Shown here: in pieces, positions 1 through 42,583 of the stretch | Numbering within the stretch: position 1 is the stretch's first letter | Layout of the letters: every line of letters starts with the position of its first letter | Translations under genes and position numbers: made by a program | Notes under the pieces: generated by a model | What the model was told of the DNA's origin: nothing | Databases searched by the model: none | The model's input: the letters and a program-made list of their open reading frames with translations, nothing else | Assembly (NCBI GenBank): GCA_964452555.1 | Contig: CAYVMI010000018.1 | Coordinates: 32,329 to 96,328 of the forward strand | Source: an uncultured Desulfobacterales bacterium | GTDB lineage: Bacteria; Desulfobacterota; Desulfobacteria; Desulfobacterales; B30-G6 | Direction: 5' to 3' | DNA length: 64,000 nucleotides

Positions 1-643
1 CGTCGTCGTCCACGCCGCAAAGCCCCGGACAGCTGTCATCGTTCATGTCGCCGGGCGGATCTTCGTCCACATTGTTGTCGCCGTCATCGTCTATTCCGTT
101 AATAGGATCATCGTTCCGGCTGCTGCTCTCATCATCTGAATCCGACCCATCCCCTCCATCCACCTCGCCACTTCCGCTATCATCAATTAAATAAATGCCC
201 GCAACCGCATCATAATTCAGGTCATCGGAAACATCTTCATCCACCAGTCCATCCTTGTCGTCATCGGCATCCGGAATTCCGTCCTGGTTCAAGTCGATAT
301 AGAGCGGCAGGGCCACCGCCAATACCGCCGTGTATTTGGTGCTGTCGTCCGTGGGCGGCGTGGGGGGTACGGTTTCCTCACGGATATTTTCGGCCCAGTT
401 GGTGCTATCCTTGTCGTTCAGGGGCAGCTGGAGATAGCGGGTATGGCTCACCGCCTTGACCATGCGCTGCATGGCAAAACGGGCCTGCCGCGTGAGGGCG
501 TTGATCTCCCGGCTGCGGTCATAGGATTGCATGGCATGCCCCACCAGCTCGGACAAGCCCAGGACCAGTATGGCCCCCATACTGATGGCCGCCAGCAGTT
601 CGATCAGGGTCAAGCCATTGTTATTTTTGATTCCGTACCGCAT
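1..643 (-). CDS. Minor pseudopilin (prepilin-type N-terminal cleavage/methylation domain) followed by acidic thrombospondin-type-3-like repeats; N-terminal part only, C-terminus lies beyond window start
   Basis: Absent from ORF track because it runs off the edge. Own translation from ATG 643..641: MRYGIKNNNG-LTLIELLAAISMGAILVLGL (G/LTLIE motif + hydrophobic helix), later DLNQDGIPDADDDKDGLVDED and DDDGDNNVDEDPPGDMNDDSCPGLCGVDDD; frame open to position 1. Confidence 0.75.
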   Translation of the reverse strand, partial: MRYGIKNNNGLTLIELLAAISMGAILVLGLSELVGHAMQSYDRSREINALTRQARFAMQRMVKAVSHTRYLQLPLNDKDSTNWAENIREETVPPTPPTDDSTKYTAVLAVALPLYIDLNQDGIPDADDDKDGLVDEDVSDDLNYDAVAGIYLIDDSGSGEVDGGDGSDSDDESSSRNDDPINGIDDDGDNNVDEDPPGDMNDDSCPGLCGVDDD

Positions 644-732
644 GGATTTTGTGTTTGGTATTTCATGTTTTGTGTTTCGTGGTACGGGTTTGTGTTATGA
701 GTCTTAGCACCCCAACGTCATAACCACTGATT

Positions 733-812
733 GTCGTTCCCGCGGAAGCGGGAAACCAGACAGAGCCTCTCGCTAAAAGCTTATCCTGGATCCCCGATTT
801 CTCGGGGATGAC
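733..812 (+). repeat. Dual-hairpin REP-like element, copy A
   Basis: gtcgTTCCCGCggaaGCGGGAAaccag ... cctgGATCCCCGatttCTCGGGGATgac; same two-hairpin layout as 4149..4234. Track ORF 663..902 is just its translation (WFPASAGTT, VIPEKSGIQ). Confidence 0.8.
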
Positions 813-1027
813 AACCGGAGACGGCTGGGATGCTGTAAGCCATGTCCTGCAACCCGAATCCCGGAACTCGTAACCCGGAACTTGAATCCTACACCCCTTC
901 AAACCTCCACCCCTACAACCCTTTATGAAAGCCTAATAGCCTAAATCTTCTGTCTCCTGTCTTCTGACTCCCCAGGCCACCATAACCCAGAGCCTGCCGA
1001 AGGGCGACGGCGGCTGACTCCTGAATT

Positions 1028-1474
1028 CTATCTTTTCGTCAACGTCTCCATCCCCTCCAGCGTATTCTCTATCTGCACCCGCGCCCACAGCAGACCGTCA
1101 TCCACCCCGGTAAAGTTGTCGTCATCGGCATCGGCATTGTCGCCGTCATAGCGCGCCAGAAAAACCAATAGGCGCCGCTCGGTACCGGCGGCGTCCGAAT
1201 AGGCCGCCACAATCACACCCGGCCCGCCGGCTGCGTCAGCCGCTGCCTGCAGTTCATCGAAGGGCTTGGCCAGGACTTCCTCCAGTTTCCCGGATATGCG
1301 ATAATGGTCGACCGCTCGGATTTCGTGGATATCACCGCCTTGGACACCCCCGAATACCGCGCTGATGGCCGGTATCAAAGTCAGAGCAATTAGTATCACC
1401 GCCACCAGCACTTCCACATAGGAAAATCCTTTTTCTATTTTTAACCAATTAAAATTATTTGAAAAAAAATTCAT
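1028..1474 (-). CDS. Minor pseudopilin (GspI/PilV-like, prepilin-type N-terminal domain)
   Basis: Internal start of track ORF 1028..1633: MNFFSNNFNWLKIEKG-FSYVEVLVAVILIALTLIPAI; ATG 1474..1472 overlaps upstream stop as ATGA. Confidence 0.75.
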   Translation of the reverse strand: MNFFSNNFNWLKIEKGFSYVEVLVAVILIALTLIPAISAVFGGVQGGDIHEIRAVDHYRISGKLEEVLAKPFDELQAAADAAGGPGVIVAAYSDAAGTERRLLVFLARYDGDNADADDDNFTGVDDGLLWARVQIENTLEGMETLTKR

Positions 1475-2019
1475 TGCACCGTAACCCTCCCGCTGATGCC
1501 GTGCAAGGTTACCACACGGGATATGGCCCCGGCTGAAAAAGTTATGTCCAGCTGGTTCACCAGTACGTCTGACGGATCGGCACACCAGGGGGTGCCGTTG
1601 GCATCGAAATACGTATTGCCGGCGACGCTGCAATTTCCACGAAATGAAATTGCACGGTTTACACTTTCAGAATAGGCAAACCTATGCGAAGCCAGATCGA
1701 TGTCGTAGAGATTTTTACTTAAAGGATGGTAAACGTCGTATATCGGCGTCCAGGGATTGGTGGTGGTGTCCAGACGAAATACGCGGATGCGGGTGACTTC
1801 CGCGCCCGCTATATTTCGAAACCCAAAGGGCGCCCCCTGCTGCATGGCCAGGCTGCGGGCATAGCGCATGCTCTGCGCAAATTCTTCGGCCGCCAGCTCC
1901 AACTTGGCGTGGCCGCCGACCGAAAAACTGGGGATCGCCAACATGGCGGCGAACCCCAGGATAGTAATCACCAGCAGCAGCTCAACCAGACTCAGACCAG
2001 CCTGTGCAGGCGCCTTCAT
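1471..2019 (-). CDS. GspH/FimT-family pseudopilin
   Basis: MKAPAQAG-LSLVELLLVITILGFAAMLAIPSF prepilin motif; 182 aa; in pilin gene run. Confidence 0.8.
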   Translation of the reverse strand: MKAPAQAGLSLVELLLVITILGFAAMLAIPSFSVGGHAKLELAAEEFAQSMRYARSLAMQQGAPFGFRNIAGAEVTRIRVFRLDTTTNPWTPIYDVYHPLSKNLYDIDLASHRFAYSESVNRAISFRGNCSVAGNTYFDANGTPWCADPSDVLVNQLDITFSAGAISRVVTLHGISGRVTVQ

Positions 2020-2024
2020 GCCAT

Positions 2025-2573
2025 TTACAAGGTGTCGTGGGCACCGTTGTCGGCGGCAATGAGCACACCGGTTACGGGATAAAATTTCCAGCCAAAATCC
2101 TGCCCAGCCGAACTTCTGACCGTAATGTCGGCCTCGTCAAAATCGGCCGTGACATCTGTTTTATTGTTATACGGGTTTGTGGGCAGGGTTTGTTTTTTCA
2201 GGTAGGGTCCGTAAATGAATGCCCCTCCCTTAGTGTCTGCGGTCTGACCATCCACGTCCGTATACCGAGTCAATTGGGGCACGATGGCCGCGATGGCTTC
2301 GGCATCCGAGGCCGTGGCCGCCCCGTCGGTATGTTTGGTGGATCCGGGATACTTGCTGTCATGCTGATGGTAATAGAGCTCGACGGCATTGCGCAAGGCG
2401 CTCAGGTTGGTTGACAGCGTGTTGAGTTTGGCATCCTCGGTCGAAACCGCCACCTGCGGAATGATGATCATGGCCAGAATACCCAGCACGATCACGACAA
2501 TCAACATCTCGATCAGGGTAAAACCGGACTGTTTCCGTAGCAATCTCAACCCCTTGTCTATGGACGTTTTCAT
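2025..2573 (-). CDS. Major pilin / GspG-like pseudopilin
   Basis: MKTSIDKGLRLLRKQSG-FTLIEMLIVVIVLGILAMIIIPQ; start moved to ATG 2573 which has AAGGAG 9 nt upstream. Confidence 0.85.
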   Translation of the reverse strand: MKTSIDKGLRLLRKQSGFTLIEMLIVVIVLGILAMIIIPQVAVSTEDAKLNTLSTNLSALRNAVELYYHQHDSKYPGSTKHTDGAATASDAEAIAAIVPQLTRYTDVDGQTADTKGGAFIYGPYLKKQTLPTNPYNNKTDVTADFDEADITVRSSAGQDFGWKFYPVTGVLIAADNGAHDTL

Positions 2574-2675
2574 GACTTGTGTCTCCTTACACATACAGGT
2601 TTTCTTCCTTAAATCTCTCTGTAAATATATATCGGCAGTTTATTGAAATCCTTTAGTAAAAAAGTTAAAGGGTGG

Positions 2676-2836
2676 GAAGCAGGAGTCAGAAAACAGCAGG
2701 CTGTAGGCTGAAGACTGTTAGGCTGTTTGGCGCCAGATGTTGACCCGTAATCCGAAATACAAACCCGAAACTCGCAACACACAACCCGATTCTGAATTCT
2801 GACTCCTGAATTCTGTCTTCTGACGCCTGTTTTCTG
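2676..2836. repeat. Low-complexity word-tile spacer with inverted words (caggagtcag / ctgactcctg; aaaacagcagg / cctgttttctg) plus aggct- and aacccg-type tiles
   Basis: Read directly; words and their reverse complements occur within 160 nt between gspF-like stop and pilin start. Confidence 0.7.
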
Positions 2837-2843
2837 TTTCGAA

Positions 2844-3995
2844 TCAATGCAAGGCTTGCGATAACTTGAACAATGGCAAAATAATCGAAGAAACTATCAC
2901 CCCCACAATCCCTCCCATCACGATCAAGGCAATCGGCTCGATCAGGGAGGCAAATTTCTTTAATTCCTGTTCGATCTCCATATCGTAAAACCGGACCAGC
3001 CGCATGAGCACCTCCGGCAGCTTACCCGCCTCTTCACCGATGGCCACCATCTGTTTCACGGTTTGAGGAATATAGGCGTACGTGGCGAAAGGCTGGGAAA
3101 ACCGCCCACCTTGATCGATATGCGTGCGGATACGCTCAACAAATTGACGGTAGTACTGATTCCAAATGGTGGGACGGGTTACGTCCATGGCTTCCAGCAG
3201 GGGTACATGGCTGTCCATGAGGTATCCCAGGGTTCTTAGCATTTCGCAGGTATATATCTTGTTCGCCAGACCGGATATGAGCGGACCGCTGATTAATACT
3301 TTGTCCAATATGCGCCGCCCCCAGGGGCTTTTGACAAACAGCATACCCCCAAAAGCAATTCCGATACTACCCAGGATGTAAACCCACCAGTACAACCGTA
3401 ACGAATCGCTGGCAGCCATGAGCAAACGTGTGGATAGGGGCAATAGGTCTTCCTTGCCTTCAAAAAATGCCGTAAACTTGGGCAGCACCGCCACCAGCAC
3501 AAATACCACCACGATCATACCAAACAGCATCAAGACCCCCGGATAGGTCAAGGCAGAGCGCAGTTGGGTCATAACGGCCTGCCGCTTTTCCTGCATCTCC
3601 ACCACCCGATCCAGAATCTTTTTAAGAAATCCGCCGGTCTCACCGGCCCGAATCATGCTGACGGTCTGTTGGTTGAATATCTTGGGGTGGCCCTGCATGG
3701 CTTCCGACAATTGACGCCCGGCCTCGATCCTCCCCGCCATATCCAGGATTGCCGCTCGAAACATTGGATTTTGAACCTCTTCGGCCACAGACTTCAAGGC
3801 CACTGTCAGAGGGGTGCCGATTTCAAGCATTAAGGCCAGCTGCGTGTTGAAAAACATCACCTCCTTGGCTGTGGCGTGCTTTTTAAACCGCTCCAGGAGA
3901 TCGCCCTGCGTAAACCCGATCTTTGGCTTCTTGATTTTAGAACCGTTTAGTGCGGCCGTATTCACGGCACCATTTGTATTAAAATTGAGAGCCAT
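2844..3995 (-). CDS. Type II secretion/type IV pilus platform protein (GspF/PilC family)
   Basis: 383 aa, duplicated GspF-type domain, three hydrophobic segments, typical ...MIRAGETGG... and ...MVAIGEEAGKL... motifs. Confidence 0.9.
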   Translation of the reverse strand: MALNFNTNGAVNTAALNGSKIKKPKIGFTQGDLLERFKKHATAKEVMFFNTQLALMLEIGTPLTVALKSVAEEVQNPMFRAAILDMAGRIEAGRQLSEAMQGHPKIFNQQTVSMIRAGETGGFLKKILDRVVEMQEKRQAVMTQLRSALTYPGVLMLFGMIVVVFVLVAVLPKFTAFFEGKEDLLPLSTRLLMAASDSLRLYWWVYILGSIGIAFGGMLFVKSPWGRRILDKVLISGPLISGLANKIYTCEMLRTLGYLMDSHVPLLEAMDVTRPTIWNQYYRQFVERIRTHIDQGGRFSQPFATYAYIPQTVKQMVAIGEEAGKLPEVLMRLVRFYDMEIEQELKKFASLIEPIALIVMGGIVGVIVSSIILPLFKLSQALH

Positions 3996-4148
3996 AATAC
4001 TACTTTAGCCTTTTAGGTATTTAGACTGTAGGCAGTAGGCGTTCAACCGCCGAAGAGCCTATTAATTCTGCTTAATGCTTCATTTGCCTTAAGCTATAAG
4101 CAACTGTGGCATTTGCCTTAGTGCTTAAAGCTGAACTCGCCCCTTCCT

Positions 4149-4234
4149 GTCATTCCCTCGGAAGAGGGAATCCAGTCAACACCGTCTGCTAATAGCTAAA
4201 GGCTTTTCTGGATCCCCGATTGCTCGGGGATGAC
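4149..4234 (+). repeat. Dual-hairpin REP-like element, copy B
   Basis: gtcATTCCCTCggaaGAGGGAATccag ... ctgGATCCCCGattgCTCGGGGATgac; the first stem differs from copy A by a compensatory pair (G-C to T-A). Confidence 0.85.
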
Positions 4235-4405
4235 ATCCGTATGTTGGGATGTTCGATGTTAAAGCAGTTTATGCTGGATACTGCTTTAGCTTTTTAGGTG
4301 TTTAGACTGTAGGCTGTAGGCGTTTAACCGCCTAACAGTCAAAAAGTCTTCAGCCTAACAGCCTTGACTCCTGAATTCTGTCTTCTGACTTCTGTCTCCT
4401 GTCTC

Positions 4406-4615
4406 CTAAACTAACGATCTCGCCTTCTTCACATCCCCCACCAGCTCGATGTTGCCGCAGTCCAGACACATAAAACCTTTTACAGCCAAGTCGGCTGTCT
4501 GCATCGCAAAAAAATTGACGCTATCCGGTCGAAAATATACCCTGCCGGATGATTGAGCCTTACCCGCGGCCATTTTTTTGCTGCCGCATCGCAAACAAGA
4601 TTTTTGATCGGTCAT
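4406..4615 (-). CDS. Small zinc-ribbon protein (CxxC ... CxxC), function unknown
   Basis: 69 aa; CLRCGS ... CLDCGN pairs; isolated between two repeat-filled spacers inside the pilus operon. Confidence 0.5.
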   Translation of the reverse strand: MTDQKSCLRCGSKKMAAGKAQSSGRVYFRPDSVNFFAMQTADLAVKGFMCLDCGNIELVGDVKKARSLV

Positions 4616-4835
4616 GGTTGTTGTCTCTTTTCCTTGGTTTTTATTAATGTCGTATTCTCATTCCCCATTTTATCGAAATGAAAAGTAAAGGCCAGGATGC
4701 CGGATGCTTGATCCTTGATGCTAGTTGCTGGATGCTGGTCAACCCGCAACCCAATTCCCGTAACCCTTCACACCTCCAAACCTACACCCTCCAACCCTCT
4801 CTAACAGCCTAACAGTCTTCAGCCTAATAGCCTGG

Positions 4836-6542
4836 TTAAATGTCCAACGACGACACCCGATGCACCTCCTCAATCGTGGTCTGGTGCTCGAGCACCTTTT
4901 GATACCCCGCCGTCTTAAGACCGCGATATCCGTTGGTGTTACAGTGCTTTCGGATCTCATCGATGGTGGGATTCTCCAGGATCAGGGTTTGCAAATCCGC
5001 ATCCATGGTCAAGAGTTCATGGATGCCGGTCCGGCCTTTGAATCCGGAGTCGTAGCATGCGCGGCAGCCTTCACCCCGATACAGCTTTTGACGCTTTTTA
5101 GCATCGATTCCCAACGCGGTCATTTCAACCTCCGAGGGGAAATAAGCCGCTTTGCACTCCGGGCATATGGTCCGCACCAGACGCTGGGACAGAGCCGCCA
5201 GCAGAGACGACGACAGCAGATAAGGCTCGATCCCCATCTCCAGCAGCCGCGTGATGGAGCTGGGGCTGTCATTGGTATGCAAGGTGGAAAGCACCAGATG
5301 ACCGGTCAGCGAAGCCTGAATTGCGATCTCGGCTGTCTCCCGGTCGCGGATCTCCCCCACCATAATCACGTCCGGGTCCTGCCGCAGGGCATGCCGGATA
5401 AAAGTGGCAAACTTGAGTCCGATGGCCGCATTGACCTGGTTTTGGTTGATATCGGCGATCTGGTATTCCACCGGATCTTCCACCGTGATGATATTGCGCT
5501 CGGGAGTGTTCAGCAGCGAAACTCCTGAATACAGGGTCGTGGTCTTGCCGCTGCCGGTGGGTCCGCATACCAGGATGAGACCATGGGAAGACCGCACAAG
5601 CGATTTAAATGTTTCCAACAAATCTTCGTCGAAACCCAGGCTGTTCAAATCCAGGATCGCCTGGCTGCGATCGAGGATCCGCATGACCACCTTTTCACCG
5701 TATACCCCCGGCATGGATGAAAAGCGCAGATCCACCACTTTGCCGTCCGCCACCACCTGGATACGACCATCCTGGGGCAGGCGTCTTTCGGCAATATTCA
5801 GCTTGGACATGACTTTCAGCCTGGAAACCACGGCCGGATGCAGCTCGATTTTTTGGGGGCGCTGTTCATACAACATACCGTCCACGCGCACCCGAATACG
5901 TAAGCGGTCTTCCTGGGGTTCGATGTGGATATCGCTGGCGCCGTCTCGTATGGCACGCAACAAAATCAAATTGGCGAGATTGACGATGGGGCTGTCCTCA
6001 GCCATTTCTGCCAGTTCAGCTATTTCAGCCTCGGAACGCCCCTCCACCACATCGATGCTGGATTCATCGGCGCTGGACATGAGTTCATCGATGCTGGCAT
6101 CTCCCTGATAGGCCTGGGGAATCGCCTCTAAAATATCTTCGGAACGACAGATGACCGGCTGAACCTCAAGATTGGTTATTTTGCGCACTTCATCAAAAAC
6201 ATTAAACCCATAGGGGTCCGATGTTGCCAGGGTGATCACTCCGTTGACCACAAACATGGGCAGAACCTGGTAATGGAGGGCTTTTTCCTTGGGTAGAATT
6301 TGGACGATCTTGGGATCCACCAGGCCTTTGCGCAGCCAGACATGCGGAATCCCCATCTGCTCACCCAGGGCCTTGGACAGTTCCTCCTTGGTTAAGATGC
6401 CCTCATCGATCAGCAGCTGTCCTAAGGGTTTGCCGGTTTCCTTTTGCAGACGCAATAAGCTGGTTAGTTTTTCCGGTTCAACCTTGCCGCTTTGAACCAG
6501 AATTTCCCCCAGCTTCCTTCTTTTTTTGATGATGCGCGTCAT
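4836..6542 (-). CDS. GspE/PilB/MshE-family secretion ATPase with N-terminal MshEN-type c-di-GMP-binding domain
   Basis: 568 aa; Walker A GPTGSGKTTT, Asp/His boxes, tetracysteine CPECK...CRAC; N-terminus carries two 24-residue MshEN-like motifs (see findings). Confidence 0.95.
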   Translation of the reverse strand: MTRIIKKRRKLGEILVQSGKVEPEKLTSLLRLQKETGKPLGQLLIDEGILTKEELSKALGEQMGIPHVWLRKGLVDPKIVQILPKEKALHYQVLPMFVVNGVITLATSDPYGFNVFDEVRKITNLEVQPVICRSEDILEAIPQAYQGDASIDELMSSADESSIDVVEGRSEAEIAELAEMAEDSPIVNLANLILLRAIRDGASDIHIEPQEDRLRIRVRVDGMLYEQRPQKIELHPAVVSRLKVMSKLNIAERRLPQDGRIQVVADGKVVDLRFSSMPGVYGEKVVMRILDRSQAILDLNSLGFDEDLLETFKSLVRSSHGLILVCGPTGSGKTTTLYSGVSLLNTPERNIITVEDPVEYQIADINQNQVNAAIGLKFATFIRHALRQDPDVIMVGEIRDRETAEIAIQASLTGHLVLSTLHTNDSPSSITRLLEMGIEPYLLSSSLLAALSQRLVRTICPECKAAYFPSEVEMTALGIDAKKRQKLYRGEGCRACYDSGFKGRTGIHELLTMDADLQTLILENPTIDEIRKHCNTNGYRGLKTAGYQKVLEHQTTIEEVHRVSSLDI

Positions 6543-6907
6543 GATCTCTTGTGGGCCAGGGCTTCGTTGATATCCTTGTAAACAAACAGTATGTTAATAA
6601 TGCGCGTGGCCAAAAGAATATCCCGACAGACTTCATTCAGGCCGGCGATTTTAAGGGCACCCCCATTCTGCATTAGATTATCATGGGTTTCCACCAGCAA
6701 CTCCAAAGCCGCGCTGTCCAGGTGATCCACCTTTTTTAAATCCAGGATGATTTCTGTATGGCCGGCGTATATTTTCTCCTTGATTTTTTTATCTAGGTTC
6801 TCACAATTTTCCCAGGTGATCGATTGCTTCAGGGCCAGAGCCGCACGCCCGTCGATATTAACGCTTTTGACGGAATCCCCCTCCTGAGCTTGTGGTTTAG
6901 TTGGCAT
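6539..6907 (-). CDS. STAS-domain protein (anti-sigma-factor-antagonist fold)
   Basis: Internal start of track ORF 6539..7252: MPTKPQ...ILDLKKVDHLDSAALELLVE...GGALKIAGLN; GGAGAGGTG SD upstream of ATG 6907; stop overlaps ATPase start (ATGA). Confidence 0.85.
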   Translation of the reverse strand: MPTKPQAQEGDSVKSVNIDGRAALALKQSITWENCENLDKKIKEKIYAGHTEIILDLKKVDHLDSAALELLVETHDNLMQNGGALKIAGLNEVCRDILLATRIINILFVYKDINEALAHKRS

Positions 6908-8417
6908 AAGACACCTCTCCCACCAGGTAGCCGGCCTCATCCACGATTTGGCTAAATACGGACACAATCTTGGGATCCAACTGACTGCCGGCCACTTCTT
7001 TAACGATAGACAAAGCTTTGTATAATGATTTGGCCGACCGGTAGGACCGGGTGGAACTGATGGCATCGAAAGTGTCGGCCACTGCGATAATTCGGGCTGA
7101 TAGGGGAATCTGCAGACGGGCCAGACCGCTTGGATATCCGTTGCCGTCATAACGTTCATGGTGATGCAGGATGCCGGGCAGAGACTCCACCAACTGTTCC
7201 ACCGGCTTGAGAATCTCAAATCCCTTGGCCGGGTGGTCTTTGACAACCTCAAACTCCTCCTCGGTCAATTTGCCGGGTTTGTTCAGAATGGTCTCCGGGA
7301 TACCGATTTTGCCGATATCGTGTAAAATTGAGGCCCAGCGAAGCGCCTCCAGTTCACCACCCTGCATACCCAATTTCCTCCCTATTTGCATGGAATACTG
7401 GGAAACGCGCTCAGAATGACCCCGGGTGTAAACGTCTTTAGCCTCGATGGCAAAGACCAGCGACTTGACCATGTTGATGATAAATACTTCCAGGTCCTGG
7501 TACAGGTTGGTGTTTGCAATCACTACACTTAACTGTTCAGCCAGAGAAACCAAAAGCTGCAATTCACCCTGGCGGAAAATTTCATTCATATTAAAGGATA
7601 CCAGCCCCAGCCAGCCATAGAATCCTTCTTCATGGTCGATCCGGACTGCCAGGAAACGGAACTCTGTCTGGGAGAATGATCGGTAGACCGGATTTGAACC
7701 GGATCGATTGACTATAAAATACTTGTCTCCGGTTGAGATAATCTCCTCGGGGATGGAATCAATCAGCCTGTGATAGAAACTCATATCTTCCCTTAGGTGA
7801 TCATCAAGGTTAGGTTGAGCAACCAGCGTATTGTATTCGGGACTATCGTTTAAGATAGCAAAGGCAGCATCTGAACGCAGGTTGATCAGCAAACTTTTGA
7901 TCAAGCTTTCCAGCATTGTGTTGGAAAATTTCAGCGTCTTGATCTGCGATGCGATTTTACCGTAAAGGAAAAGATCTTCAAAAGACTGGTCCAGCTCTTC
8001 GGCCAGGTCATTGACCTCTTCCCGCGCCTCCCAGCTTTCCTGAAGCAGCTTGGCCAAACTACCCAGAAAATTTTCCATCTCCATGGCATGTTGCCAAACA
8101 CGGGGGTCGTCAGATGCCTCCGTGGCCTGGGTACGGCTCTCATCCTCATAAGCGATCAAGGTTCCAAAGGGACCTTTTCCGTTGGACAATGGATACCCGC
8201 ACATGAATTGGCGGCCGTTATATAGGTCATGCTGATAGCGATTTTCCCTCAACACAATTTTAGACAAACCTTGAATCGCTTGGTTAAAGCTTGGATCCGT
8301 ATCATTCTGCTCCGGGTCGGGATACAGCATATGGCCGTTAAGATCCCATACCTGATAATGTAGTTGACTGATGGGTGTCAGATTTGTCAGAAATTCTTTC
8401 AGCTCGGTCAATTCCAT
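6897..8417 (-). CDS. HD-GYP c-di-GMP phosphodiesterase with N-terminal sensory (GAF-like) region
   Basis: HSERV...LHDIGKIGIP...HHERYDGNGYPSGL motifs. Confidence 0.9.
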   Translation of the reverse strand: MELTELKEFLTNLTPISQLHYQVWDLNGHMLYPDPEQNDTDPSFNQAIQGLSKIVLRENRYQHDLYNGRQFMCGYPLSNGKGPFGTLIAYEDESRTQATEASDDPRVWQHAMEMENFLGSLAKLLQESWEAREEVNDLAEELDQSFEDLFLYGKIASQIKTLKFSNTMLESLIKSLLINLRSDAAFAILNDSPEYNTLVAQPNLDDHLREDMSFYHRLIDSIPEEIISTGDKYFIVNRSGSNPVYRSFSQTEFRFLAVRIDHEEGFYGWLGLVSFNMNEIFRQGELQLLVSLAEQLSVVIANTNLYQDLEVFIINMVKSLVFAIEAKDVYTRGHSERVSQYSMQIGRKLGMQGGELEALRWASILHDIGKIGIPETILNKPGKLTEEEFEVVKDHPAKGFEILKPVEQLVESLPGILHHHERYDGNGYPSGLARLQIPLSARIIAVADTFDAISSTRSYRSAKSLYKALSIVKEVAGSQLDPKIVSVFSQIVDEAGYLVGEVSYAN

Positions 8418-8794
8418 TAGGTGGTTTCCCCATTGTATGCTTGTATATTCTGTAATATTTCCATTGGGCTGAATGGCTTTTCCAGTAATATGGTATCTTG
8501 CAGCTCTTTGACCCAGATAATGTCTTGCGGATCTATACGGGCGGTCACCACGATGGTCAGAAAAGGTTTCTCCTTTTTAAGCGGGTTGGTTCGAATGCAA
8601 AGCGTTTTGCCGTCCATTATGGGCATATTGATGTCGGTTATGACCACATGGGGCCGGTTCTCTTGAATCAATTCCAGAGCTTCCTGCCCGTTTTTGGCCA
8701 TGACTACCCGCATACCCTGCTTTTTGAGTTTGATTTCCAAAACCCGGCGGATATGGGCTTCATCGTCTACTATAAGTGCCGTTTTAATCGTCAA
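8417..8794 (-). CDS. Single-domain response regulator (CheY-like receiver)
   Basis: ALIVDDE...VVITDINMPIMDG...; I prefer the TTG start at 8794 (GGAGGA 8 nt upstream, 11-nt overlap with kinase) over track ATG 8851 (68-nt overlap). Confidence 0.8.
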   Translation of the reverse strand: MTIKTALIVDDEAHIRRVLEIKLKKQGMRVVMAKNGQEALELIQENRPHVVITDINMPIMDGKTLCIRTNPLKKEKPFLTIVVTARIDPQDIIWVKELQDTILLEKPFSPMEILQNIQAYNGETT

Positions 8795-10634
8795 TGTAGT
8801 ATTCCTCCATGGGAATGCTAATGATAAAATAGGTGCCTTTTCCGAGTTCACTTTTTACGTCGATCCTGCCACCATGCAGGTTGATAATCTCTGCAGCAAT
8901 GCATAATCCCAAGCCGGTACCTTGATTATCCTGAACCTTGGGATTGGACGAACGATAGAATTTATCGAAAATGTGATCCAGATCTTCCTGGGACATGCCG
9001 TAACCGGTATCGCTGATATCAAAAATGATATTGCCGCCCTCTTTCCGCAAGCCGAAGTCGATCACACCCTTTTGGGGCGTGTATTTAACCGCATTTCCGA
9101 GTATGTTGATAATGGCCCCCTTGAGCAGCTCTTTATCCCCCATAAAAACCGGGAAATTGTCAGGTGCATGACGCTCGATGGCGATCCCCTTTTTCTTGGC
9201 GCTGCCTTGCACCGAGACTAGACAATCCGTAAACAGCGAATCGGATTTAACAATATCTTTACTCAATGTAAGGCTGCCCATCTCGATTCTTGAGAGGTTC
9301 AGTAAATCTTTGATCAACCGCGATAGTCTCTTGGTTTCCTTGTTGATGGTATTAAAAAATTCCTTTTGGGTCTCAACATCCTCAATTTCACCTTCCATCA
9401 ACATTTCGCTGTAGGATTGAATGGTCGTCAGCGGTGTCATGATCTCATGCGACAAGTGGGCCACAAAAGCGATGGTATTTTTTTCCGCGTTTTTCTGGGT
9501 GGTAATATTGTTGAACGTAATTAAACTACCCGAAGAATGATTGTCTGCTCCGGTTAACGGCGTACAGGTGACTGAAAAGACATCTGTCTCCGAAAGCTCC
9601 GTAAGGGATAGCTCCACATGGTTTTGGGCCCGCAGCTGTTCTAGGCTGCCTTGTTGCGAAATGAAATGCACCAGAGCTGAATTGGAAAAAACTTCCTCAA
9701 AAGGCCGGTCGATCATATCGCGCCGAGTTTTGCCCAGATGCATCAACAGATAGTCATTGATGTGAACCACGCAGCCTTGAATATCGATAATCATGATGCC
9801 GTAATTAATGGTATTGAGAATATCGACGATCTGCCTTTTTTCATATTTGACGACACCCACCTGGGAGGCCAGACCCTTGTTATTTCCCTCGATTTTTTTG
9901 AGCTGTTTTTTCAATCGCACCAAAGCCACATGAAAATCTTTAATCATGCCATCAATGCTACCGATGCCGAAGGCCCGGGCCAACTCGTTTTTGGTCCGAC
10001 GCCGCGATGATTTGGGCACCAACTTGGAAACGGTCCCCCGGAGCGGCTTGACTGCCTGAAGGATGCCGTATTGGAATATGATGACGACGGCGGTAATAAA
10101 AAAGAAAAGCATCCCCAACAGGCTGATCCTTTCCTTGGTAAATAGGGATAGCGGCTCGAGCATCAGTCCGATATTAACGGTACCGGCCCGCTCCCCGTTT
10201 TCGAAAATCGGTTTTGAAAAGTCGAAAAGCCGGGCATCGTTATCTGTAAACTCAAAGGGTGAAAACACCAGCCCGGCCGCTTTTACCCTGCTTGAGTTTT
10301 GATCATTCTTGATGGCCAAATTGACCTGGGGCAGCCTAAAGGAAACCAATGTGGCCCCCGATCGATCGACAATGTGACAGTATGCCAGTCCTTCCTTGGT
10401 GGAATACTCCATCAGGGTTCTCACGAAGAAATCATGTTCCTTCTCAAAGGTTGCCATCGGTTGTAAGGCGATCAAGCTGACCAGGTGGTTGCCTTTGGTA
10501 TAGACTTCCTGGACCCGCTCCTTATTTTCGGTCCTGAGTTGAAAATTGGTTATAACAAATAGGCCCGAGAAAATGAGTAATATGAGAAAAAAATTGATGG
10601 CTTTTGTTTTCAGCACGTCGATGCTTCCCTTCAT
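8784..10634 (-). CDS. Membrane sensor histidine kinase (two TM segments, extracytoplasmic domain, PAS, HisKA, HATPase_c)
   Basis: H-box FVAHLSHEIMTPL, G-boxes DTGYGM and GTGLGL; start moved to MKGSIDV (ATG 10634, AAGGTGGTG upstream). Confidence 0.9.
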   Translation of the reverse strand: MKGSIDVLKTKAINFFLILLIFSGLFVITNFQLRTENKERVQEVYTKGNHLVSLIALQPMATFEKEHDFFVRTLMEYSTKEGLAYCHIVDRSGATLVSFRLPQVNLAIKNDQNSSRVKAAGLVFSPFEFTDNDARLFDFSKPIFENGERAGTVNIGLMLEPLSLFTKERISLLGMLFFFITAVVIIFQYGILQAVKPLRGTVSKLVPKSSRRRTKNELARAFGIGSIDGMIKDFHVALVRLKKQLKKIEGNNKGLASQVGVVKYEKRQIVDILNTINYGIMIIDIQGCVVHINDYLLMHLGKTRRDMIDRPFEEVFSNSALVHFISQQGSLEQLRAQNHVELSLTELSETDVFSVTCTPLTGADNHSSGSLITFNNITTQKNAEKNTIAFVAHLSHEIMTPLTTIQSYSEMLMEGEIEDVETQKEFFNTINKETKRLSRLIKDLLNLSRIEMGSLTLSKDIVKSDSLFTDCLVSVQGSAKKKGIAIERHAPDNFPVFMGDKELLKGAIINILGNAVKYTPQKGVIDFGLRKEGGNIIFDISDTGYGMSQEDLDHIFDKFYRSSNPKVQDNQGTGLGLCIAAEIINLHGGRIDVKSELGKGTYFIISIPMEEYYIDD

Positions 10635-11052
10635 TTGAACACCACCTTGATGTGGCAACTTTTAATTAGCCGATGCATTAAATGCCGGTCGCATGCCCGC
10701 ACATGGATATCCTGTGCTATGGTTCTATATCGGCCAACGCACCAGATTCTTTAGTTTTTCTTTATAAAACCATAAAATCGTCGGGTGATTTTATTTTTTC
10801 TAAAGCTTTGTGATATTTTTCCGATATTAAAAACGTAAACCTAAATTTGCTATAGCTTGTCTCAAAATGAAGCTATGAATCTCTGGCAACGCATAGGAGA
10901 TTCCAGCCTGTTAGGTTATTAGGCTATGCCGGACAAGCGAAAAAAGGAGCTTACTCCGGGCATGTGAGCATTTGAACTGCTCTGCAATCCCGCCTAAACC
11001 GGGATCAGGGGGACCTTATTTTTTGTGAGGTTGGCTATAGAAGGAGCATGTT

Positions 11053-11874
11053 GTGAACGATCGTAATCGAACCAAGCTGACCACCATGGAGGTTCTGACT
11101 ATCATATTTTTTTCGTTGATATGCACCATCATCATGGACCACTTGGATGCATATGAGCGTCTGCAGTTGTTCATTATCGAAAATAATATATCTGTGTTTG
11201 ACGAATTCATTGTTTTCTTTCCGGCATTCATAGCCATGGGATTCATCCTGTTTTCAACTAAGCGAGTACAGGAACTAGGCTCGGAAGTTATGCGCAGACA
11301 GAAAGCGGAAGCGGCCTTAGTTGAAAGTGAAAAAAAATACCGCGAACTCAGCATCACAGACGGACTGACCGGGCTCTATAACCAACGGCACTTCTACCAT
11401 CGTCTGGACGCTGAGATTGATCGGGCGCAACGCTATTCAATACCTTTGACCGTTCTCTTAATGGACGTGGATGACTTTAAGCTATTCAATGATACCTATG
11501 GTCATCTGGACGGAGATAAGGTTCTCAAAGAAATTGGCCGCATCATCCACGCCTTTATTCGCAGGTCGGATTCTGCCTTCCGTTATGGCGGCGAGGAATT
11601 CGTCGTTATCATGCCGGAAACAAATGGCAGCAGCGCTCATACGGTGGCAGATCGAATACGCGAAGGCTTTAAACAGCACATTTTCATCACCCACAATAAA
11701 TCAGCCGAACAATTAACCCTGAGCTTGGGTATAGCCGAATGTAATCCCGGTGAAGATTCCCGCACCCTTGTAAAAAGGGCTGATTTCAACATGTACTGCG
11801 CCAAGAAAAACGGCAAAGACCAAATCTGTTATTCCAACCAGGATCCCAACCTCAAACATGCCATCGGATTTTAG
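11053..11874 (+). CDS. Membrane-anchored diguanylate cyclase (GGDEF)
   Basis: GTG start with AAGGAG 6 nt upstream; active site RYGGEEF with RxxD I-site (RRSD) five residues upstream; two N-terminal TM helices. Confidence 0.9.
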   Translation: MNDRNRTKLTTMEVLTIIFFSLICTIIMDHLDAYERLQLFIIENNISVFDEFIVFFPAFIAMGFILFSTKRVQELGSEVMRRQKAEAALVESEKKYRELSITDGLTGLYNQRHFYHRLDAEIDRAQRYSIPLTVLLMDVDDFKLFNDTYGHLDGDKVLKEIGRIIHAFIRRSDSAFRYGGEEFVVIMPETNGSSAHTVADRIREGFKQHIFITHNKSAEQLTLSLGIAECNPGEDSRTLVKRADFNMYCAKKNGKDQICYSNQDPNLKHAIGF

Positions 11875-13661: not shown

Positions 13662-13868
13662 ATGCAAACAGTTACTGTATCGCCGAAATTTCAGGTCGTT
13701 ATACCAAAGGTCATTCGTGAGGCTATGCAGATCCGTCCCGGCCAAAAGTTAAAAATCATCGAGTATGATGGACGAATCGAATTAATCCCAGAAAAGGACA
13801 TCGTAGAATTACAAGGATTTCTTAAAGGTATTAATACGAATTTCATTCGAGAGGACGACCGCCTATGA
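13662..13868 (+). CDS. vapB: AbrB/SpoVT-fold antitoxin (VapB-type)
   Basis: MQTVTVSPKFQVVIPKVIREAMQIRPGQKL; 4-nt overlap with the PIN gene. Confidence 0.8.
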   Translation: MQTVTVSPKFQVVIPKVIREAMQIRPGQKLKIIEYDGRIELIPEKDIVELQGFLKGINTNFIREDDRL

Positions 13869-14242
13869 ATATTGTGGATTCCTCGGGATGGCTTGAATAC
13901 TTTTCAGACGGCTTCAATGCAGAGTATTATAAGCAACCGCTTCAAAATCCTTCTGACTTGATCGTTCCATCCATAACTATTTACGAAGTTTTTAAGGTTG
14001 TTCTACGCGAAGCCGATGAAAAAAATGCACTGCTATCCATAGCTGCCATGCAAAAAGGAACGGTTGTTGATTTAAATCCCAGCATTGCCATCAATGCTGC
14101 CAAGCTGAGTCTTAATCATCATCTCCCTATGGCGGACAGCATTATATTAGCCACTGCAAAAAAGTATGACTGTCTTATTTGGACTCAGGATTCCGATTTT
14201 AAAAATCTACCAAATGTTAATTATTTTCCGATTAAAAAATAA
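13865..14242 (+). CDS. vapC: PIN-domain ribonuclease toxin (VapC)
   Basis: IVDSSGWLEY ... ADSIILATAKK ... WTQDSDF acidic PIN residues. Confidence 0.85.
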   Translation: MNIVDSSGWLEYFSDGFNAEYYKQPLQNPSDLIVPSITIYEVFKVVLREADEKNALLSIAAMQKGTVVDLNPSIAINAAKLSLNHHLPMADSIILATAKKYDCLIWTQDSDFKNLPNVNYFPIKK

Positions 14243-33627: not shown

Positions 33628-36399
33628 CTACGCCGCTTTCGAAATTCGGACCGCACAAACCTTGAGTTCGGGGATTCCGGAAACCGGATCCAGAGCAGCG
33701 TTGGTTAGTTTGTTGGCAGCTGCCTGGGCATAATGAAAAGGAATGAAAATCGTGCCCGGCACTGCCTGGTCAGAAACTTTAACGGCGGCCTCAAGATCTC
33801 CACGACGAGATTCTACTTTTACCATGGCGCCATCTTCCAGTTCATAGTTACGCGCGTCCTCAGACGATATTTCCACGTAACAAGCCGGAGCGCGCTCATT
33901 CAAGCCATCTGATTTCATGGTCATGGTGCCGGTATGGTAGTGATACAGGATCCGGCCGGTGGTCAGGGACAGCGGATAATCCGCGTCGATCTTTTCAGCG
34001 GGACCGTTGTAATCAATGGGATGCATGAGGCCTTTGCCGCGGGTGAACTGCTCTCTATGTAGAATCGGTGTCCCGGGGTGGTCTTTGCTGGGACAAGGCC
34101 AGTGCAGCCCCACCGCTTCGATGCGCTCATAATCGATCCCGGCATATGACGGGGTAACCGCGGCCAGTTCCTGCATAATGTCCTGGCTGGTATCGTAGGA
34201 CATGGCCACCCCCATACGCGTGGCTATCTCAGCCGTAATTTCCCAATCATCCTTGGCCTGGCCGGGAGCATCCACGGCTTTGCGTATACGCTGAACGCGC
34301 CGTTCACTGTTGGTGAAGGTACCTTCCTTTTCGGCAAAACATTTGGAGGGCAGTACCACATCCGCCAGTTGAGCCGTCTCGGTCATGAAAATATCCTGCA
34401 CCACCAAAAAGTCGAGATTTGTGAAACATTTTTCGGCATGATTCAAATCCGCATCCGACACCATCGGATTTTCACCCAGGATATACAAACCTTTGAATTC
34501 GCCGTCATGCGCTTTGGGCAGCATTTTGGTAATCGTCAATCCAGGCTCCGTGGAAATCCCGCTCACGCCCCAGGCGGTCTCCATTTTTTTGGCGGCTTCT
34601 AAGTCGGTCACCGGCTGGTAGCCGGAAAATACATTGGGAAGTCCGCCCATGTCGCAGGCGCCCTGGACGTTGTTTTGACCCCGTAAAGGATTGACACCGC
34701 CCCCTTCCACACCCATGTGACCGCAAAGCATGGCCAGATTGGCCAATGATTTCACATTATCGGTGCCATTGGTATGCTGGGTAATTCCCATGCAATAACA
34801 GATGCTGCCGGCCTTGGCCTGGGCATACGCTCTGGCAGCCTCGGCCAACTGCGCCTGGGGAATGCCCGTAATCTCTTCCACATAAGCCGGTGTATACTCG
34901 GCCACTGTTTTTCTGAGATCTTCGAATCCCTCGGTCCGTTTCTCAACAAAGTCCTGGTCATACAGGGCTTCATTGATGATGACATTCATCATGCCGTTGA
35001 TCCAGGCCACATCGGTACCCAGATTTTGACGCAACCAATAATGGGCAAATGAAGCCATCTTGATAAAACGCGGATCCACGACGATAAGCTTGGCACCATT
35101 GAAGCTGACCGCCCGTTTGATAAACGATGAAAGCACCGGATGGTTTTCGGTGGTATTGGATCCGGTAACCAAGATTACATCGGCCTTCTCGATTTCGCCA
35201 ATGGTATTTGTCATGGCGCCACTTCCGAATGCTGCAGCCAGACCGGCTACGGTGGAGGAATGTCAGAGCCGGGCGCAATGATCGATATTGTTGGTTTTTA
35301 ATACTCCCCGGGCAAATTTGTTGGCCAAGTAATTTTCTTCATTGGAAATCCGAGCCGAGGTGAGCACCCCCAGGCTGTCTGAGCCGTGGGATTCTTTGAT
35401 TTCACTGAATCGCTTGGCAACCAAATCCAGGGCTTCATCCCAGGTAGCCTTGCGAAAGCTGCCGTTCTCTTTGATCATGGGGTCGGTCAGTCGCTCGGGT
35501 GAATGAATAAAGTCGTATCCGAAGCGGCCTTTGACGCAGAGGCTGCCGTAGTTGGGTGCGGCCCCCTCCACACCGCTGACCTTGACCACCCGGTTGTCTT
35601 TGACATGCAGATAAAGCTGGCAGCCCACACCGCAATAGGAGCAGGTTGTACGGACCTTCTCGGTTTCCCATTGGCGTACCTGATAGCGGGCATCCTTTTC
35701 CACCAGCGCTCCCACAGGGCAAACCTGCACACATTCGCCACAAAATACACAATCCGAATCCTTGAGGGCCTTGTCCTCTTTACCCGCAATAATTTTGGAC
35801 TGGTTACCGCTATACCCGAACTCAATGGCATTGTTCACCTGGACTTCGTTACACGCCTGAACGCAGCGGCCGCATTTGATACAACGAGAGAAATCCCGGA
35901 TGATAAACGGATTGGCCGTTTCCATTGGATAAGGTGCCTGCGCATCTGCGAAGCGTTTCGGTTCCACCTGGTAACGGTAAGCCAAGTCCTGCAGACGGCA
36001 GTCCCCCCAGACCGGGCACAATTCCGAGCTGTCATCGTACTGCTGAACGTTCATCTGAAACTGGGACCAGTCATCGCTGCTGGTGCCCCGGATGGCGCAG
36101 TTGTGGTTCCCGGTGGACAGCATGAGCTGAATGATGGCCCGGCGCGCGGAAACGACGCGCGCTGATTCCGTCTGGACAATCATACCAGCCTCTGCCAAGG
36201 TGTCACAGGACGGTAGCAGGTCCTCTACACCCTCGACTTCAACCACACATATACGGCAGTTGCCTGTGGGCGCAGCGCCTTTCAGATAGCAAAGGGTGGG
36301 AATATCGATGCTGTTTCGTCTGGCCACGGCCAAGATGGTTTCATCTTTTTCAAAAGCCAAAGAGTTTCCGTTGATGATGATGTTCGGCTGATCACTCAT
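33628..36399 (-). CDS. fdhA: Formate dehydrogenase catalytic subunit with NuoG-like N-terminal [2Fe-2S]/[4Fe-4S] domains; selenoprotein with UGA-Sec at 35263..35265
   Basis: Track ORFs 35263..36420 and 33628..35214 are in frame. Junction reads [29 protein letters not shown], the canonical FdhA Sec site. Start either ATG 36420 or ATG 36399 (GAGGAAG 7 nt upstream). Confidence 0.9.
35234..35250 (-). promoter_or_regulatory. SECIS hairpin of fdhA
   Basis: On the mRNA: GUAGCC-GGUCU-GGCUGC, 12 nt after UGA. The loop GGUCU resembles my recollection of the E. coli fdhF SECIS apex (UGCA-GGUCU-GCA). Confidence 0.75.
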
Positions 36400-36742
36400 A
36401 TACGCTTCCTCTACATTCATTGGTTCCTAGATTCGGGTTATTAACTGAAATTTTTCAGCTGATACAACTCAGGATATGTATCCAAAAGCAATGCTTTTGT
36501 CAATGATGCGCGATACAAAACAAACGGTTGACGTTTTTGTATATCAAGAATTTTATCTTTGTCAAAAATATGTCTTCCTCGCGCGGGAATAAATGTAATG
36601 TCATACCGACAATACTTAACGTTTTCGGACATTTAACTAAAGTTTTATCATAAATTTGCCGATACCATTACGACGGGTATTTGTGGAATAGTCATTGCGT
36701 CCTGTTGCAGGTTGCGTTATAATAATTGTTGTCTCTGATTCG

Positions 36743-41921: not shown

Positions 41922-42338
41922 TTAGCTTGTTATATTTTTGTAGACGGCAAGGAATTGCTTAGGATTGACAATGTCAATACCCATATAATTTTCAATCGCC
42001 AGAAGCGCTTTATCTCCGGATAAGATATAATCTGCTTTTAAAGCCACCGCGCATTCTATGAATTTGTCATCATCAGGATCATCAGCTACTATTTGCAGTT
42101 CTGGTGTTTTGGCCGTAAAGATGACATGAGTGCCGGTCGCGAAAAGACCCAGAAGTTCACCAAGCTCCTTTTCATCTTGAAGCCCCATACGTCGAAGGAC
42201 TTCCACATATTCGTCAATTATGGGTTTTGACAAACACAGCGAAATCTCGCCAGTTTCCCAAAAGCCTATAACCTTACGAGGGTTACCGCCAAAAAAGGAT
42301 GAGATAAAAACATTTGTATCCAGAACAACCTTGATCAC
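41922..42338 (-). CDS. PIN-domain toxin
   Basis: MIKVVLDTNVFISSFF ... ILSGDKALL; ATGA overlap with the upstream antitoxin. Confidence 0.85.
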   Translation of the reverse strand: MIKVVLDTNVFISSFFGGNPRKVIGFWETGEISLCLSKPIIDEYVEVLRRMGLQDEKELGELLGLFATGTHVIFTAKTPELQIVADDPDDDKFIECAVALKADYILSGDKALLAIENYMGIDIVNPKQFLAVYKNITS

Positions 42339-42583
42339 CTTTTATTTCTCACTTCTTGAATGACGCGCTGTATGTCCTTTGGCTCATAACCGCCGTTTTC
42401 TATTTTTCCGCCGATGCGGCCCCACAAATCATCAATATAAGTGCCGATATCTCTATCCCGGACATACGCTTCAAGTAGTTCGCGCACAACCTCACTGACG
42501 TTTTTTCCTTCAGATTTTGCGAGCTTATAGACCTGGGTCTTGAGGTCGGGATTTATCCGCACAATCATTTGAGTCGTCATCAT
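42335..42583 (-). CDS. Ribbon-helix-helix antitoxin
   Basis: QMIVRINPDLKTQVYKLAKSEGKNVSEVVRELLEAY RHH pattern. Confidence 0.75.
   Translation of the reverse strand: MMTTQMIVRINPDLKTQVYKLAKSEGKNVSEVVRELLEAYVRDRDIGTYIDDLWGRIGGKIENGGYEPKDIQRVIQEVRNKR

Follow-up and report, generated by a model that had tools for sequence, protein, structure and literature searches.

The genes spoIIAA and rsbV are located directly upstream of the gene for an ATP-binding partner. Here we describe a gene for a protein consisting of a STAS domain only, found in a stretch of 64,000 nucleotides (nt) from an uncultured Desulfobacterales bacterium (GenBank contig CAYVMI010000018.1, positions 32,329 to 96,328; the whole stretch is hereafter called the window), which is coupled to the gene for an extension ATPase of the PilB/GspE family. 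Some STAS proteins with related features have been described. MlaB, which is also STAS-only, binds the ATPase MlaF, stabilising or regulating it, and its Thr52, equivalent to the phosphorylated Ser of other STAS proteins, lies at the interface (PMC7367683). In the HptB-HsbR-HsbA-HsbD pathway of Pseudomonas aeruginosa, phosphorylated HsbA binds the diguanylate cyclase HsbD (PMC6482189), and STAS modules resembling partner switches can regulate enzymes instead of sigma factors, with their kinases encoded elsewhere (bioRxiv 10.64898/2026.04.08.717354). For the motor, a 2024 review names cyclic di-GMP (c-di-GMP), PilZ/FimX, CpiA and phage peptides as cofactors of PilB, and describes the N-terminal domains of PilB as hubs for cofactors (PMC11656802). 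The protein cofactors accepted so far are few (PilZ/FimX, CpiA and phage inhibitors). No report of a pairing between a STAS protein and a pilus ATPase was found in the literature searched (STAS or anti-sigma antagonist combined with pilus, PilB, MshE, secretion or c-di-GMP), and a review of STAS-only proteins makes no mention of pili or ATPases.

Our reading, to which we give a probability of roughly one half, is that the STAS protein serves a type IV filament machine (MSHA-like or T2SS-like) as a stoichiometric cofactor of its extension ATPase, probably switchable at Ser65. It is proposed as a dedicated cofactor because no partner other than the ATPase is constant and because translational coupling links the two genes almost throughout, a pattern expected for subunits of a stoichiometric complex.

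Coupling of the STAS and ATPase genes

The features that bear directly on the two coupled genes are the following (aa, amino acids).

6539..6907, minus strand: gene for a STAS-domain-only protein of 122 aa (Pfam STAS, E 4.7e-13)
6539..6542, minus strand: ATGA, formed by the start codon of the ATPase and the overlapping stop codon of STAS (translational coupling; from the sequence)
6713..6718, minus strand: codons GAC AGC for Asp64-Ser65, at the canonical phospho-acceptor position (alignment and model)
6602..6631, minus strand: family signature VCRDILLATR, aa 93-102, in helix alpha3 (alignments A1 and A3)
4836..6542, minus strand: extension ATPase (568 aa) of the PilB/GspE family, carrying MshEN at its N-terminus (Pfam T2SSE, E 6.8e-136; MshEN, E 2e-16)
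6357..6515, minus strand: tandem c-di-GMP-binding motif of 53 residues, aa 10-62 of the ATPase (NCBIfam NF053729)

A first-pass annotation, made from the DNA letters alone, had described a 122-aa STAS gene that ends inside the start codon of the ATPase gene and begins 11 nt inside the end of a gene for an HD-GYP protein, and this description held in every part. The translated open reading frame (ORF) matches Pfam STAS (PF01740) with 49.3 bits, against a cut-off of 22.6, and STAS_2 with 30.2 bits, against 29.2 (E 5.3e-07). The overlap between its TGA (6541-6539) and the ATG of the ATPase (6542-6540) forms the ATGA, and its own ATG, at 6907, is located 11 nt within the HD-GYP gene (6897..8417), with a Shine-Dalgarno-like GGAGAGG upstream. 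The translation reads MPTKPQ...KKVDHLDSAALELL...EVCRDILLATRIINILFVYKDINEALAHKRS, includes the segment VDHLDSAAL and ends in AHKRS.

A first protein search with the STAS protein returned 52 proteins, of about 121 aa and 50-85% identity, and a profile search gave 127 homologues, including a subfamily of 111 aa at 30-38% identity. The carriers are metagenome-assembled genomes (MAGs) of Desulfobacterales, Desulfobacteraceae, Chrysiogenales, an Olavius symbiont, Candidatus (Ca.) Tectomicrobia and Ca. Hydrogenedentes, the closest being an uncultured Desulfobacterales MAG (locus L007) whose ATPase is 94% identical. For the comparison of gene order, 112 loci were gathered by searches with STAS sequences only and annotated by tblastn with the proteins of the window. 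They hold 112 STAS sequences, of which 100 are distinct, and are not fully de-replicated, contigs having been retrieved twice in the pairs L027/L034, L028/L059 and L030/L109.

Downstream of the STAS gene the arrangement is nearly invariable: an MshE-type ATPase gene follows directly in 91 of the 92 loci whose sequence extends for 900 nt or more downstream, and the sole exception, L102, has a divergent helix alpha3 in its STAS protein. For 84 of 113 loci, the window included, a 4-nt overlap of the two genes (ATGA or GTGA) is available, and for 5 more a 1-nt overlap, while the remaining loci mostly show short overlaps, short gaps or frameshifted contigs. An overlap of 4 nt is by itself a common operon feature. 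Its conservation here goes beyond that, being found in so many loci and in some with a STAS identity near 30%, such as L025 (Ca. Tectomicrobia, 33%) and L028 (29%).

Upstream, the neighbours vary. Among 73 loci, the gene preceding STAS encodes an HD-GYP protein in 43, a histidine kinase in 18, a GGDEF-like protein in 4, a REC protein in 1 and other products in 7; an HD-GYP or GGDEF gene thus adjoins STAS in 47 of the 73 and is absent from some other loci. The junction between HD-GYP and STAS is itself variable, with an overlap of 4-23 nt or a gap of 10 nt. Of the 42 loci with enough upstream sequence, 41 have a histidine kinase gene no more than 6.5 kb upstream of STAS. Some loci depart further from the arrangement of the window: in L025 the order is STAS, ATPase, platform and pilins, with unrelated divergent genes upstream, no REC or HD-GYP, and no kinase in 20 kb; in L028 it is kinase, STAS, ATPase, platform, pilins and PilMNO, without REC or HD-GYP; and in L029 the HD-GYP and REC genes are on the opposite strand. 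L030 keeps the five-gene order of kinase, REC, HD-GYP, STAS and ATPase without platform or pilin genes.

Because the upstream neighbour varies and the ATPase neighbour alone is constant, the link is to the ATPase and not to the HD-GYP enzyme. The first-pass annotation had called the STAS gene an orphan that might act on either protein. The comparison of loci speaks strongly for the ATPase half of this proposal, as a functional link, and does not support the HD-GYP half, the HD-GYP gene being absent or not adjacent in L025, L028 and L029 and replaced by a kinase gene directly upstream in 18 loci. The word orphan is misleading: within a conserved cassette that runs from a sensor kinase to the STAS-ATPase pair, the gene has a fixed place, and it lacks local partners only as regards partner switching. 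As the principal target of the STAS protein, the HD-GYP enzyme was rejected, this neighbour being dispensable.

Two other arrangements were observed among the relatives. In L029, a 434-aa membrane protein without Pfam match (8693-9997, plus strand) takes the place of REC and HD-GYP between kinase and STAS, and by eye its C-terminal half looks like a degenerate GGDEF domain. In the 111-aa STAS subfamily (L027, L031, L032, L034 and L036), the cassette is preceded by a sigma-54 activator of the NtrC/PilR type and an extra REC-only gene, giving the order sigma-54 response regulator, REC, kinase, REC, GAF-HD-GYP, STAS and ATPase, which suggests that a single signalling unit exerts both transcriptional and post-translational control.

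Fold and conserved residues of the coupled proteins

The AlphaFold2 model of the STAS protein, computed from a 24-sequence alignment (predicted local distance difference test 84.2, predicted template-modelling score 0.73), has the topology b1-b2-a1-b3-a2-b4-a3-b5-a4, that is, the complete SpoIIAA topology, including b5 (108-110) and a4 (113-118), with a disordered tail at residues 1-11. In Foldseek, it matched TM1081, TM1442, RsbV, RsfB and SpoIIAA with template-modelling scores relative to the query (TMq) of 0.74-0.82 and root-mean-square deviations of 1.3-1.9 A, and MlaB appeared only at rank 50, with a TMq of 0.58. A profile search of the PDB sequences agrees with this result and aligns Ser65 to the DS of the segment YMDSAGL of TM1442. 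In NCBIfam, the protein is under the cut-offs of the antagonist and MlaB models: 45.7 bits against 53.45 for TIGR00377 (ant_ant_sig), 30.1 against 114.75 for spore_II_AA and 22.2 against 90 for NF033618 (mlaB_1). Structurally of the SpoIIAA/RsbV type, it is a genuine STAS protein of one domain and belongs to a distinct subfamily, coupled to the ATPase.

The context VDHLDSAAL had been taken at the outset as that of a conserved phosphorylatable Ser, and the alignments and the model agree with this. Besides its alignment to the DS of TM1442, Ser65 (AGC, 6713-6715) opens helix alpha2 in the AlphaFold model, and Asp64 and Ser65 are invariant in the 100 distinct family sequences (100/100). Also conserved are Thr101 (99%), Glu69 (97%) and Leu68 (98%); more distant members of the family have the canonical DSSGLE. 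Helix alpha3 carries the family motif V-C-R-D-I-[LF]-x-A-T-R, with T101 present in 99, I97 in 83, C94 in 70 and D96 in 70 of the 100 sequences, and is a candidate partner-binding surface beside Ser65. These counts for DS and alpha3 are partly circular, and to that extent inflated, because the locus scans were seeded with peptide patterns containing both; the same invariance was also found in the alignments A1 and A3, made from protein-database matches alone.

One residue of helix alpha3, Cys94 (6626-6628, minus strand), is unusual among STAS proteins. Besides its presence in 70 of the 100 distinct sequences, it is invariant within the Desulfobacterales clade, and it is a candidate redox-sensitive or partner-contact residue.

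The coupled ATPase aligns over its full length to the structures of PilB from Geobacter and Myxococcus and of PilF from Thermus, and is under both NCBIfam equivalog cut-offs, that of GspE (595 against 630) and that of PilB (588 against 676). Its N-terminal region scored 52.8 bits, against a cut-off of 38, with the NCBIfam model NF053729, named 'c-di-GMP_motif, MshE-related'. MshEN is defined by a pair of motifs of 24 residues each, RLGxx(L/V/I)(L/V/I)xxG(L/V/I)(L/V/I)xxxxLxxxLxxQ, separated by a 5-residue spacer (PMC5013675). The ATPase of the window has KLGEILVQSGKV....L...L..Q, a spacer of 5 aa, and then PLGQLLIDEGIL....L...L..Q. The Leu, Gly and Gln of the published definition are all present, and the first residues, K and P, are permitted by the relaxed motif. 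Both motifs were found at the exact spacing in 48 of 107 relatives with a regular expression of our own, which is too strict, as in the ATPases of the other 59 both are visible by eye with degenerate positions.

The surrounding gene cluster

The other genes and features of the cluster are as follows.

8784..10658, minus strand: first gene in the cassette, encoding a membrane sensor histidine kinase of 624 aa with the domains PAS-HisKA-HATPase_c (Pfam)
8417..8851, minus strand: REC-only response regulator (Pfam Response_reg, E 9.4e-21)
6897..8417, minus strand: sensor/GAF-HD-GYP c-di-GMP phosphodiesterase, 506 aa (Pfam HD_5, E 2.3e-39; HD, E 3.5e-21)
4406..4615, minus strand: zinc-ribbon-like ORF of 69 aa with CxxC...CxxC, between the ATPase and GspF/PilC (conserved in relatives)
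2844..3995, minus strand: GspF/PilC platform protein (Pfam T2SSF, E 1.2e-51; NCBIfam GspF/PilC, under the cut-offs)
2025..2594, 1471..2019, 1028..1474/1633 and 2..643, minus strand: four prepilin-type genes (N_methyl, GspG-like and GspH-like matches)
11053..11874, plus strand: divergent gene for a membrane GGDEF diguanylate cyclase with GGEEF and an RxxD I-site (Pfam GGDEF, E 4.9e-47)

On the minus strand, the order is histidine kinase, REC, GAF-HD-GYP, STAS, ATPase, zinc-ribbon ORF, GspF/PilC platform and four prepilins. The overlaps at the junctions kinase/REC, REC/HD-GYP, HD-GYP/STAS and STAS/ATPase are 11, 1, 11 and 4 nt, respectively. The genes from the kinase to the pilins are one tightly coupled operon, and STAS stands precisely where its signalling half meets its machine half. 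A scan of positions 1-11200 for promoters and terminators gave fewer sites than shuffled sequence.

In the signalling half, the kinase has the conserved H-box SHEIMTPL. The REC gene likely starts at the TTG at 8794, to judge from the surrounding sequence, which would give a protein of about 125 aa and the 11-nt overlap with the kinase gene; its orthologues have 124-128 aa. The 1-nt overlap between REC and the HD-GYP start is read as TAATG. In the HD-GYP protein, the motifs HDIGK and HHHERYDGNGYP are visible in the translation, and the N-terminal 320 aa have a weak GAF_2 match. The GGDEF gene is likewise divergent in L001 and L013 and is located downstream in L002 and L011. The MshEN motifs of the ATPase, together with the HD-GYP, the GGDEF and the kinase/REC genes, therefore identify the locus, at the level of its encoded domains, as a type IV filament system under the control of c-di-GMP that has a two-component input of its own.

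In the machine half, the zinc-ribbon ORF matched no family in Pfam or NCBIfam. Its identity is 86% in L001 and 62% in L002, where it is placed after the pilin genes, and it may be another unrecognised component of the pilus system. The prepilin cluster (2..2594) extends past the left end of the window, and the clusters of the relatives go on with a DUF2341/LamG protein, followed by PilM/N/O. In L002 (11295-13793) and L005 (14703-17255), this DUF2341/Laminin_G_3 protein has 830-850 aa and is located after the minor pilins, with PilM/N/O next. It may resemble MshQ of the MSHA pilus.

The intergenic DNA near the pilus genes contains short interspersed direct and inverted repeats, at 2680-2840, 3997-4057 / 4278-4338 and 4332-4364 / 4801-4833. 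One 61-nt pair is 89% identical, and the 24-nt arm 2704-2727 is 100% complementary to 4803-4826. These are candidate repetitive extragenic palindromic (REP)-like elements, candidate elements resembling miniature inverted-repeat transposable elements (MITE-like), or candidate regulatory sites. Elsewhere the window encodes ordinary metabolic functions, tRNA synthetases and two toxin-antitoxin pairs. In one, a PIN (VapC) toxin goes with an antitoxin of the MazE/AbrB type (13662-14242, plus strand), and in the other, a PIN_3 toxin goes with a ribbon-helix-helix (RHH) antitoxin (41922-42583, minus strand). At 33628-36420 (minus strand), the adjacent ORFs for Fer2/4Fe-4S/Molybdop_Fe4S4 and for Molybdopterin/Molydop_binding domains are one frame split by just one in-frame TGA, at codon 386, between HCARL and HSSTV, most likely the selenocysteine codon of a formate-dehydrogenase-like enzyme.

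Proposed role of the STAS protein and known systems

From the gene context, we infer the binding of the STAS protein to the ATPase, the sign of its effect, the phosphorylation of Ser65 and the flow of signals among kinase, REC and HD-GYP. In the proposed mechanism, coupling of stop and start in the ATGA would lead to the STAS protein and the ATPase being made in a fixed proportion, and the STAS protein would bind the ATPase by the canonical STAS face, made up of helix alpha3 and the loop with Asp64-Ser65. This binding may gate the activity of the motor, its stability or its recruitment to the platform. The switch would be the hydroxyl of Ser65, its phosphorylation, by a kinase whose gene would lie outside the locus, breaking or altering the complex. 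Separately, the sensor kinase would phosphorylate REC, which would control the GAF-HD-GYP phosphodiesterase; the divergent GGDEF cyclase would oppose the latter, and both would set the level of c-di-GMP sensed by MshEN. The STAS protein would then be a second, protein-level input to the same motor.

Several points weigh against this proposal. Tight gene linkage can mean co-regulation instead of contact, and in L102 the order kinase, REC, HD-GYP and STAS is followed by a convergent ruvC and not by an ATPase gene. In the search with the STAS profile against 1.84 billion representatives, no fusion of STAS to T2SSE was present among ten long proteins tested from the 150 best representatives; all ten were multi-STAS proteins, one with HATPase_c_2 and one with SpoIIE. 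The conservation of the motifs is partly circular, coming in part from loci scanned with DS and alpha3 seeds. In mirror-tree comparisons, the partial correlation with the STAS distances was 0.25-0.30 for the ATPase, 0.17-0.36 for the kinase, -0.10 for HD-GYP and about 0.1 for REC and the platform, a signal weakly in favour of the proposal, on which it does not rest, as the signal has no proper null and implicates the kinase equally. Finally, it is entirely plausible that a classical GHKL kinase partner is encoded elsewhere, because the predicted STAS structure resembles the classical anti-sigma antagonists far more than MlaB.

The last point can be carried as far as a complete partner switch, in which an unlinked kinase of the RsbW/SpoIIAB type and a PP2C phosphatase would act through the STAS protein on a sigma factor, and the level of the STAS protein would report the expression of the pilus operon. 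The closest structures are indeed bona fide antagonists (TM1442, RsbV, RsfB and SpoIIAA, at 0.74-0.82), the Asp-Ser pair is invariant, distant members carry the canonical DSSGLE, and kinases of STAS proteins can be unlinked, as for All4160. We nevertheless consider this quite unlikely, since it leaves unexplained why the ATPase is the only constant, overlapping neighbour in about 100 loci of several phyla. Moreover, the first-pass annotation had noted that the window holds no RsbW/SpoIIAB-type kinase, PP2C phosphatase or sigma factor, and the Pfam scans of its approximately 55 ORFs support this, with no HATPase_c_2 (PF13581), SpoIIE/PP2C or sigma factor match. Neither were an RsbW-type kinase, a PP2C or a sigma factor found in the 12 related neighbourhoods annotated with Pfam, and a low-sensitivity phmmer search with one RsbW-like domain and a partial PP2C gave no match in any stop-to-stop ORF of the 112 loci and the window. 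The STAS protein is also under the ant_ant_sig cut-off, and its family-specific alpha3 motif argues for a family-specific partner. Even less probable is a sensor of a small ligand, for example a nucleotide, that would never be phosphorylated, with Ser65 structural or in contact with the ligand, and the ligand controlling the association with the motor. Among the ligands proposed for STAS domains are acyl carrier protein and nucleotides. A nucleotide second messenger is at the centre of the locus, which links no kinase to STAS, and binding of ligands has been proposed for some STAS domains in the MlaFB report cited above (PMC7367683); against this, no ligand-binding motif was identified in the STAS protein, and an invariant Asp-Ser at the N-terminus of alpha2 is the classical geometry of a phospho-site.

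An action on the signalling enzymes is somewhat less improbable than either, although still unlikely. The STAS protein could modulate the HD-GYP enzyme, as HsbA does HsbD, to which it binds when phosphorylated (PMC6482189), or could bind the GHKL domain of the histidine kinase as a partner other than REC. The STAS start overlaps the HD-GYP gene, which is the commonest upstream neighbour (43/73). This enzyme is, however, missing or not adjacent in L025, L028, L029 and all the kinase-only architectures, its junction with STAS varies from overlap to gap, and its partial correlation with STAS is negative; on this side, the kinase is more likely as the partner than HD-GYP. Upstream kinases occur in 41 of 42 loci, in 18 loci the kinase adjoins STAS directly, and its partial correlation is positive, but L025 is without it in 20 kb, and the kinases keep the canonical His of the H-box and look like ordinary His-Asp kinases. 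A role on the signalling side is kept alive because the histidine kinase is near-universal and because of L102, where the signalling genes and STAS occur without the ATPase. The histidine kinase was also considered as a disguised Ser kinase, which was rejected, the H-box His being conserved even in the kinase-only architectures.

The reading of the STAS protein as a cofactor of the ATPase can be extended, more tentatively, to a partner-switching STAS protein that has been rewired, with the extension ATPase in the place of the anti-sigma kinase. It would form a 1:1 gate switchable at Ser65, so that the kinase and c-di-GMP jointly decide on extension, and in the boldest form of this possible extension, the histidine kinase or the motor itself would set the state of Ser65. 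If the cofactor role is true, a conserved, coupled STAS partner would be a new regulatory principle for type IV filament machines and another non-transcriptional output of the partner-switching family. The cassette of kinase, REC, HD-GYP, STAS and MshEN-ATPase is compact, and in it a two-component signal and c-di-GMP would converge on one motor. Most of its carriers belong to uncultured Desulfobacterales and other lineages from sediment, in which attachment and the formation of aggregates are ecologically important.

Among the known systems, the cofactors of PilB and MshE are similar in being small cytoplasmic factors that gate the extension ATPase, several of them by way of its N-terminal domain and in response to c-di-GMP (PMC11656802, PMC5013675). 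They differ in that none is a STAS protein, and the word STAS is absent from the 2024 review (PMC11656802). HsbA is similar in connecting a phosphorelay with the metabolism of c-di-GMP and with the decision for a motile or a sessile life. However, hsbA adjoins hsbR, which encodes a REC-PP2C-kinase protein, and the other partner of HsbA is the anti-sigma factor FlgM, whereas none of the loci described here has a PP2C/kinase fusion and their c-di-GMP enzyme is a dispensable neighbour. All4160/HenR of Anabaena and SypA/SypE of Vibrio fischeri offer examples of a phosphorylation-controlled STAS protein that regulates a machine or enzyme for surface polymers and not transcription; All4160 regulates an enzyme of exopolysaccharide synthesis and its kinases are encoded elsewhere. 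In contrast to the present case, their targets belong to polysaccharide synthesis, and for All4160 and SypA a dedicated phosphatase or kinase/phosphatase pair is known (HenR, SypE).

The STAS protein shares with SpoIIAA and RsbV the same complete fold, at a score of about 0.8, and the Asp-Ser at the N-terminus of alpha2. The coupled downstream gene, however, encodes here a hexameric ATPase of the PilB/GspE type instead of a GHKL Ser-kinase/anti-sigma factor, genes for a PP2C or a sigma factor are absent nearby, the protein is below the ant_ant_sig cut-off, and its alpha3 has the motif VCRDI[LF]xATR. With MlaB and MlaF, the likeness is in the genes, as in both cases the STAS protein is encoded with the ATPase of an envelope machine, here in the same operon and coupled by the ATGA. 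MlaB is, on the other hand, a weak structural match (rank 50, TMq 0.58), and the mlaB model scores only about 22 bits of the 90 required. MlaB is without b5 and a4 and its partner is an ABC ATPase, whereas the STAS protein described here has the complete fold and, as its candidate partner, an ATPase of the PilT/VirB11 superfamily.

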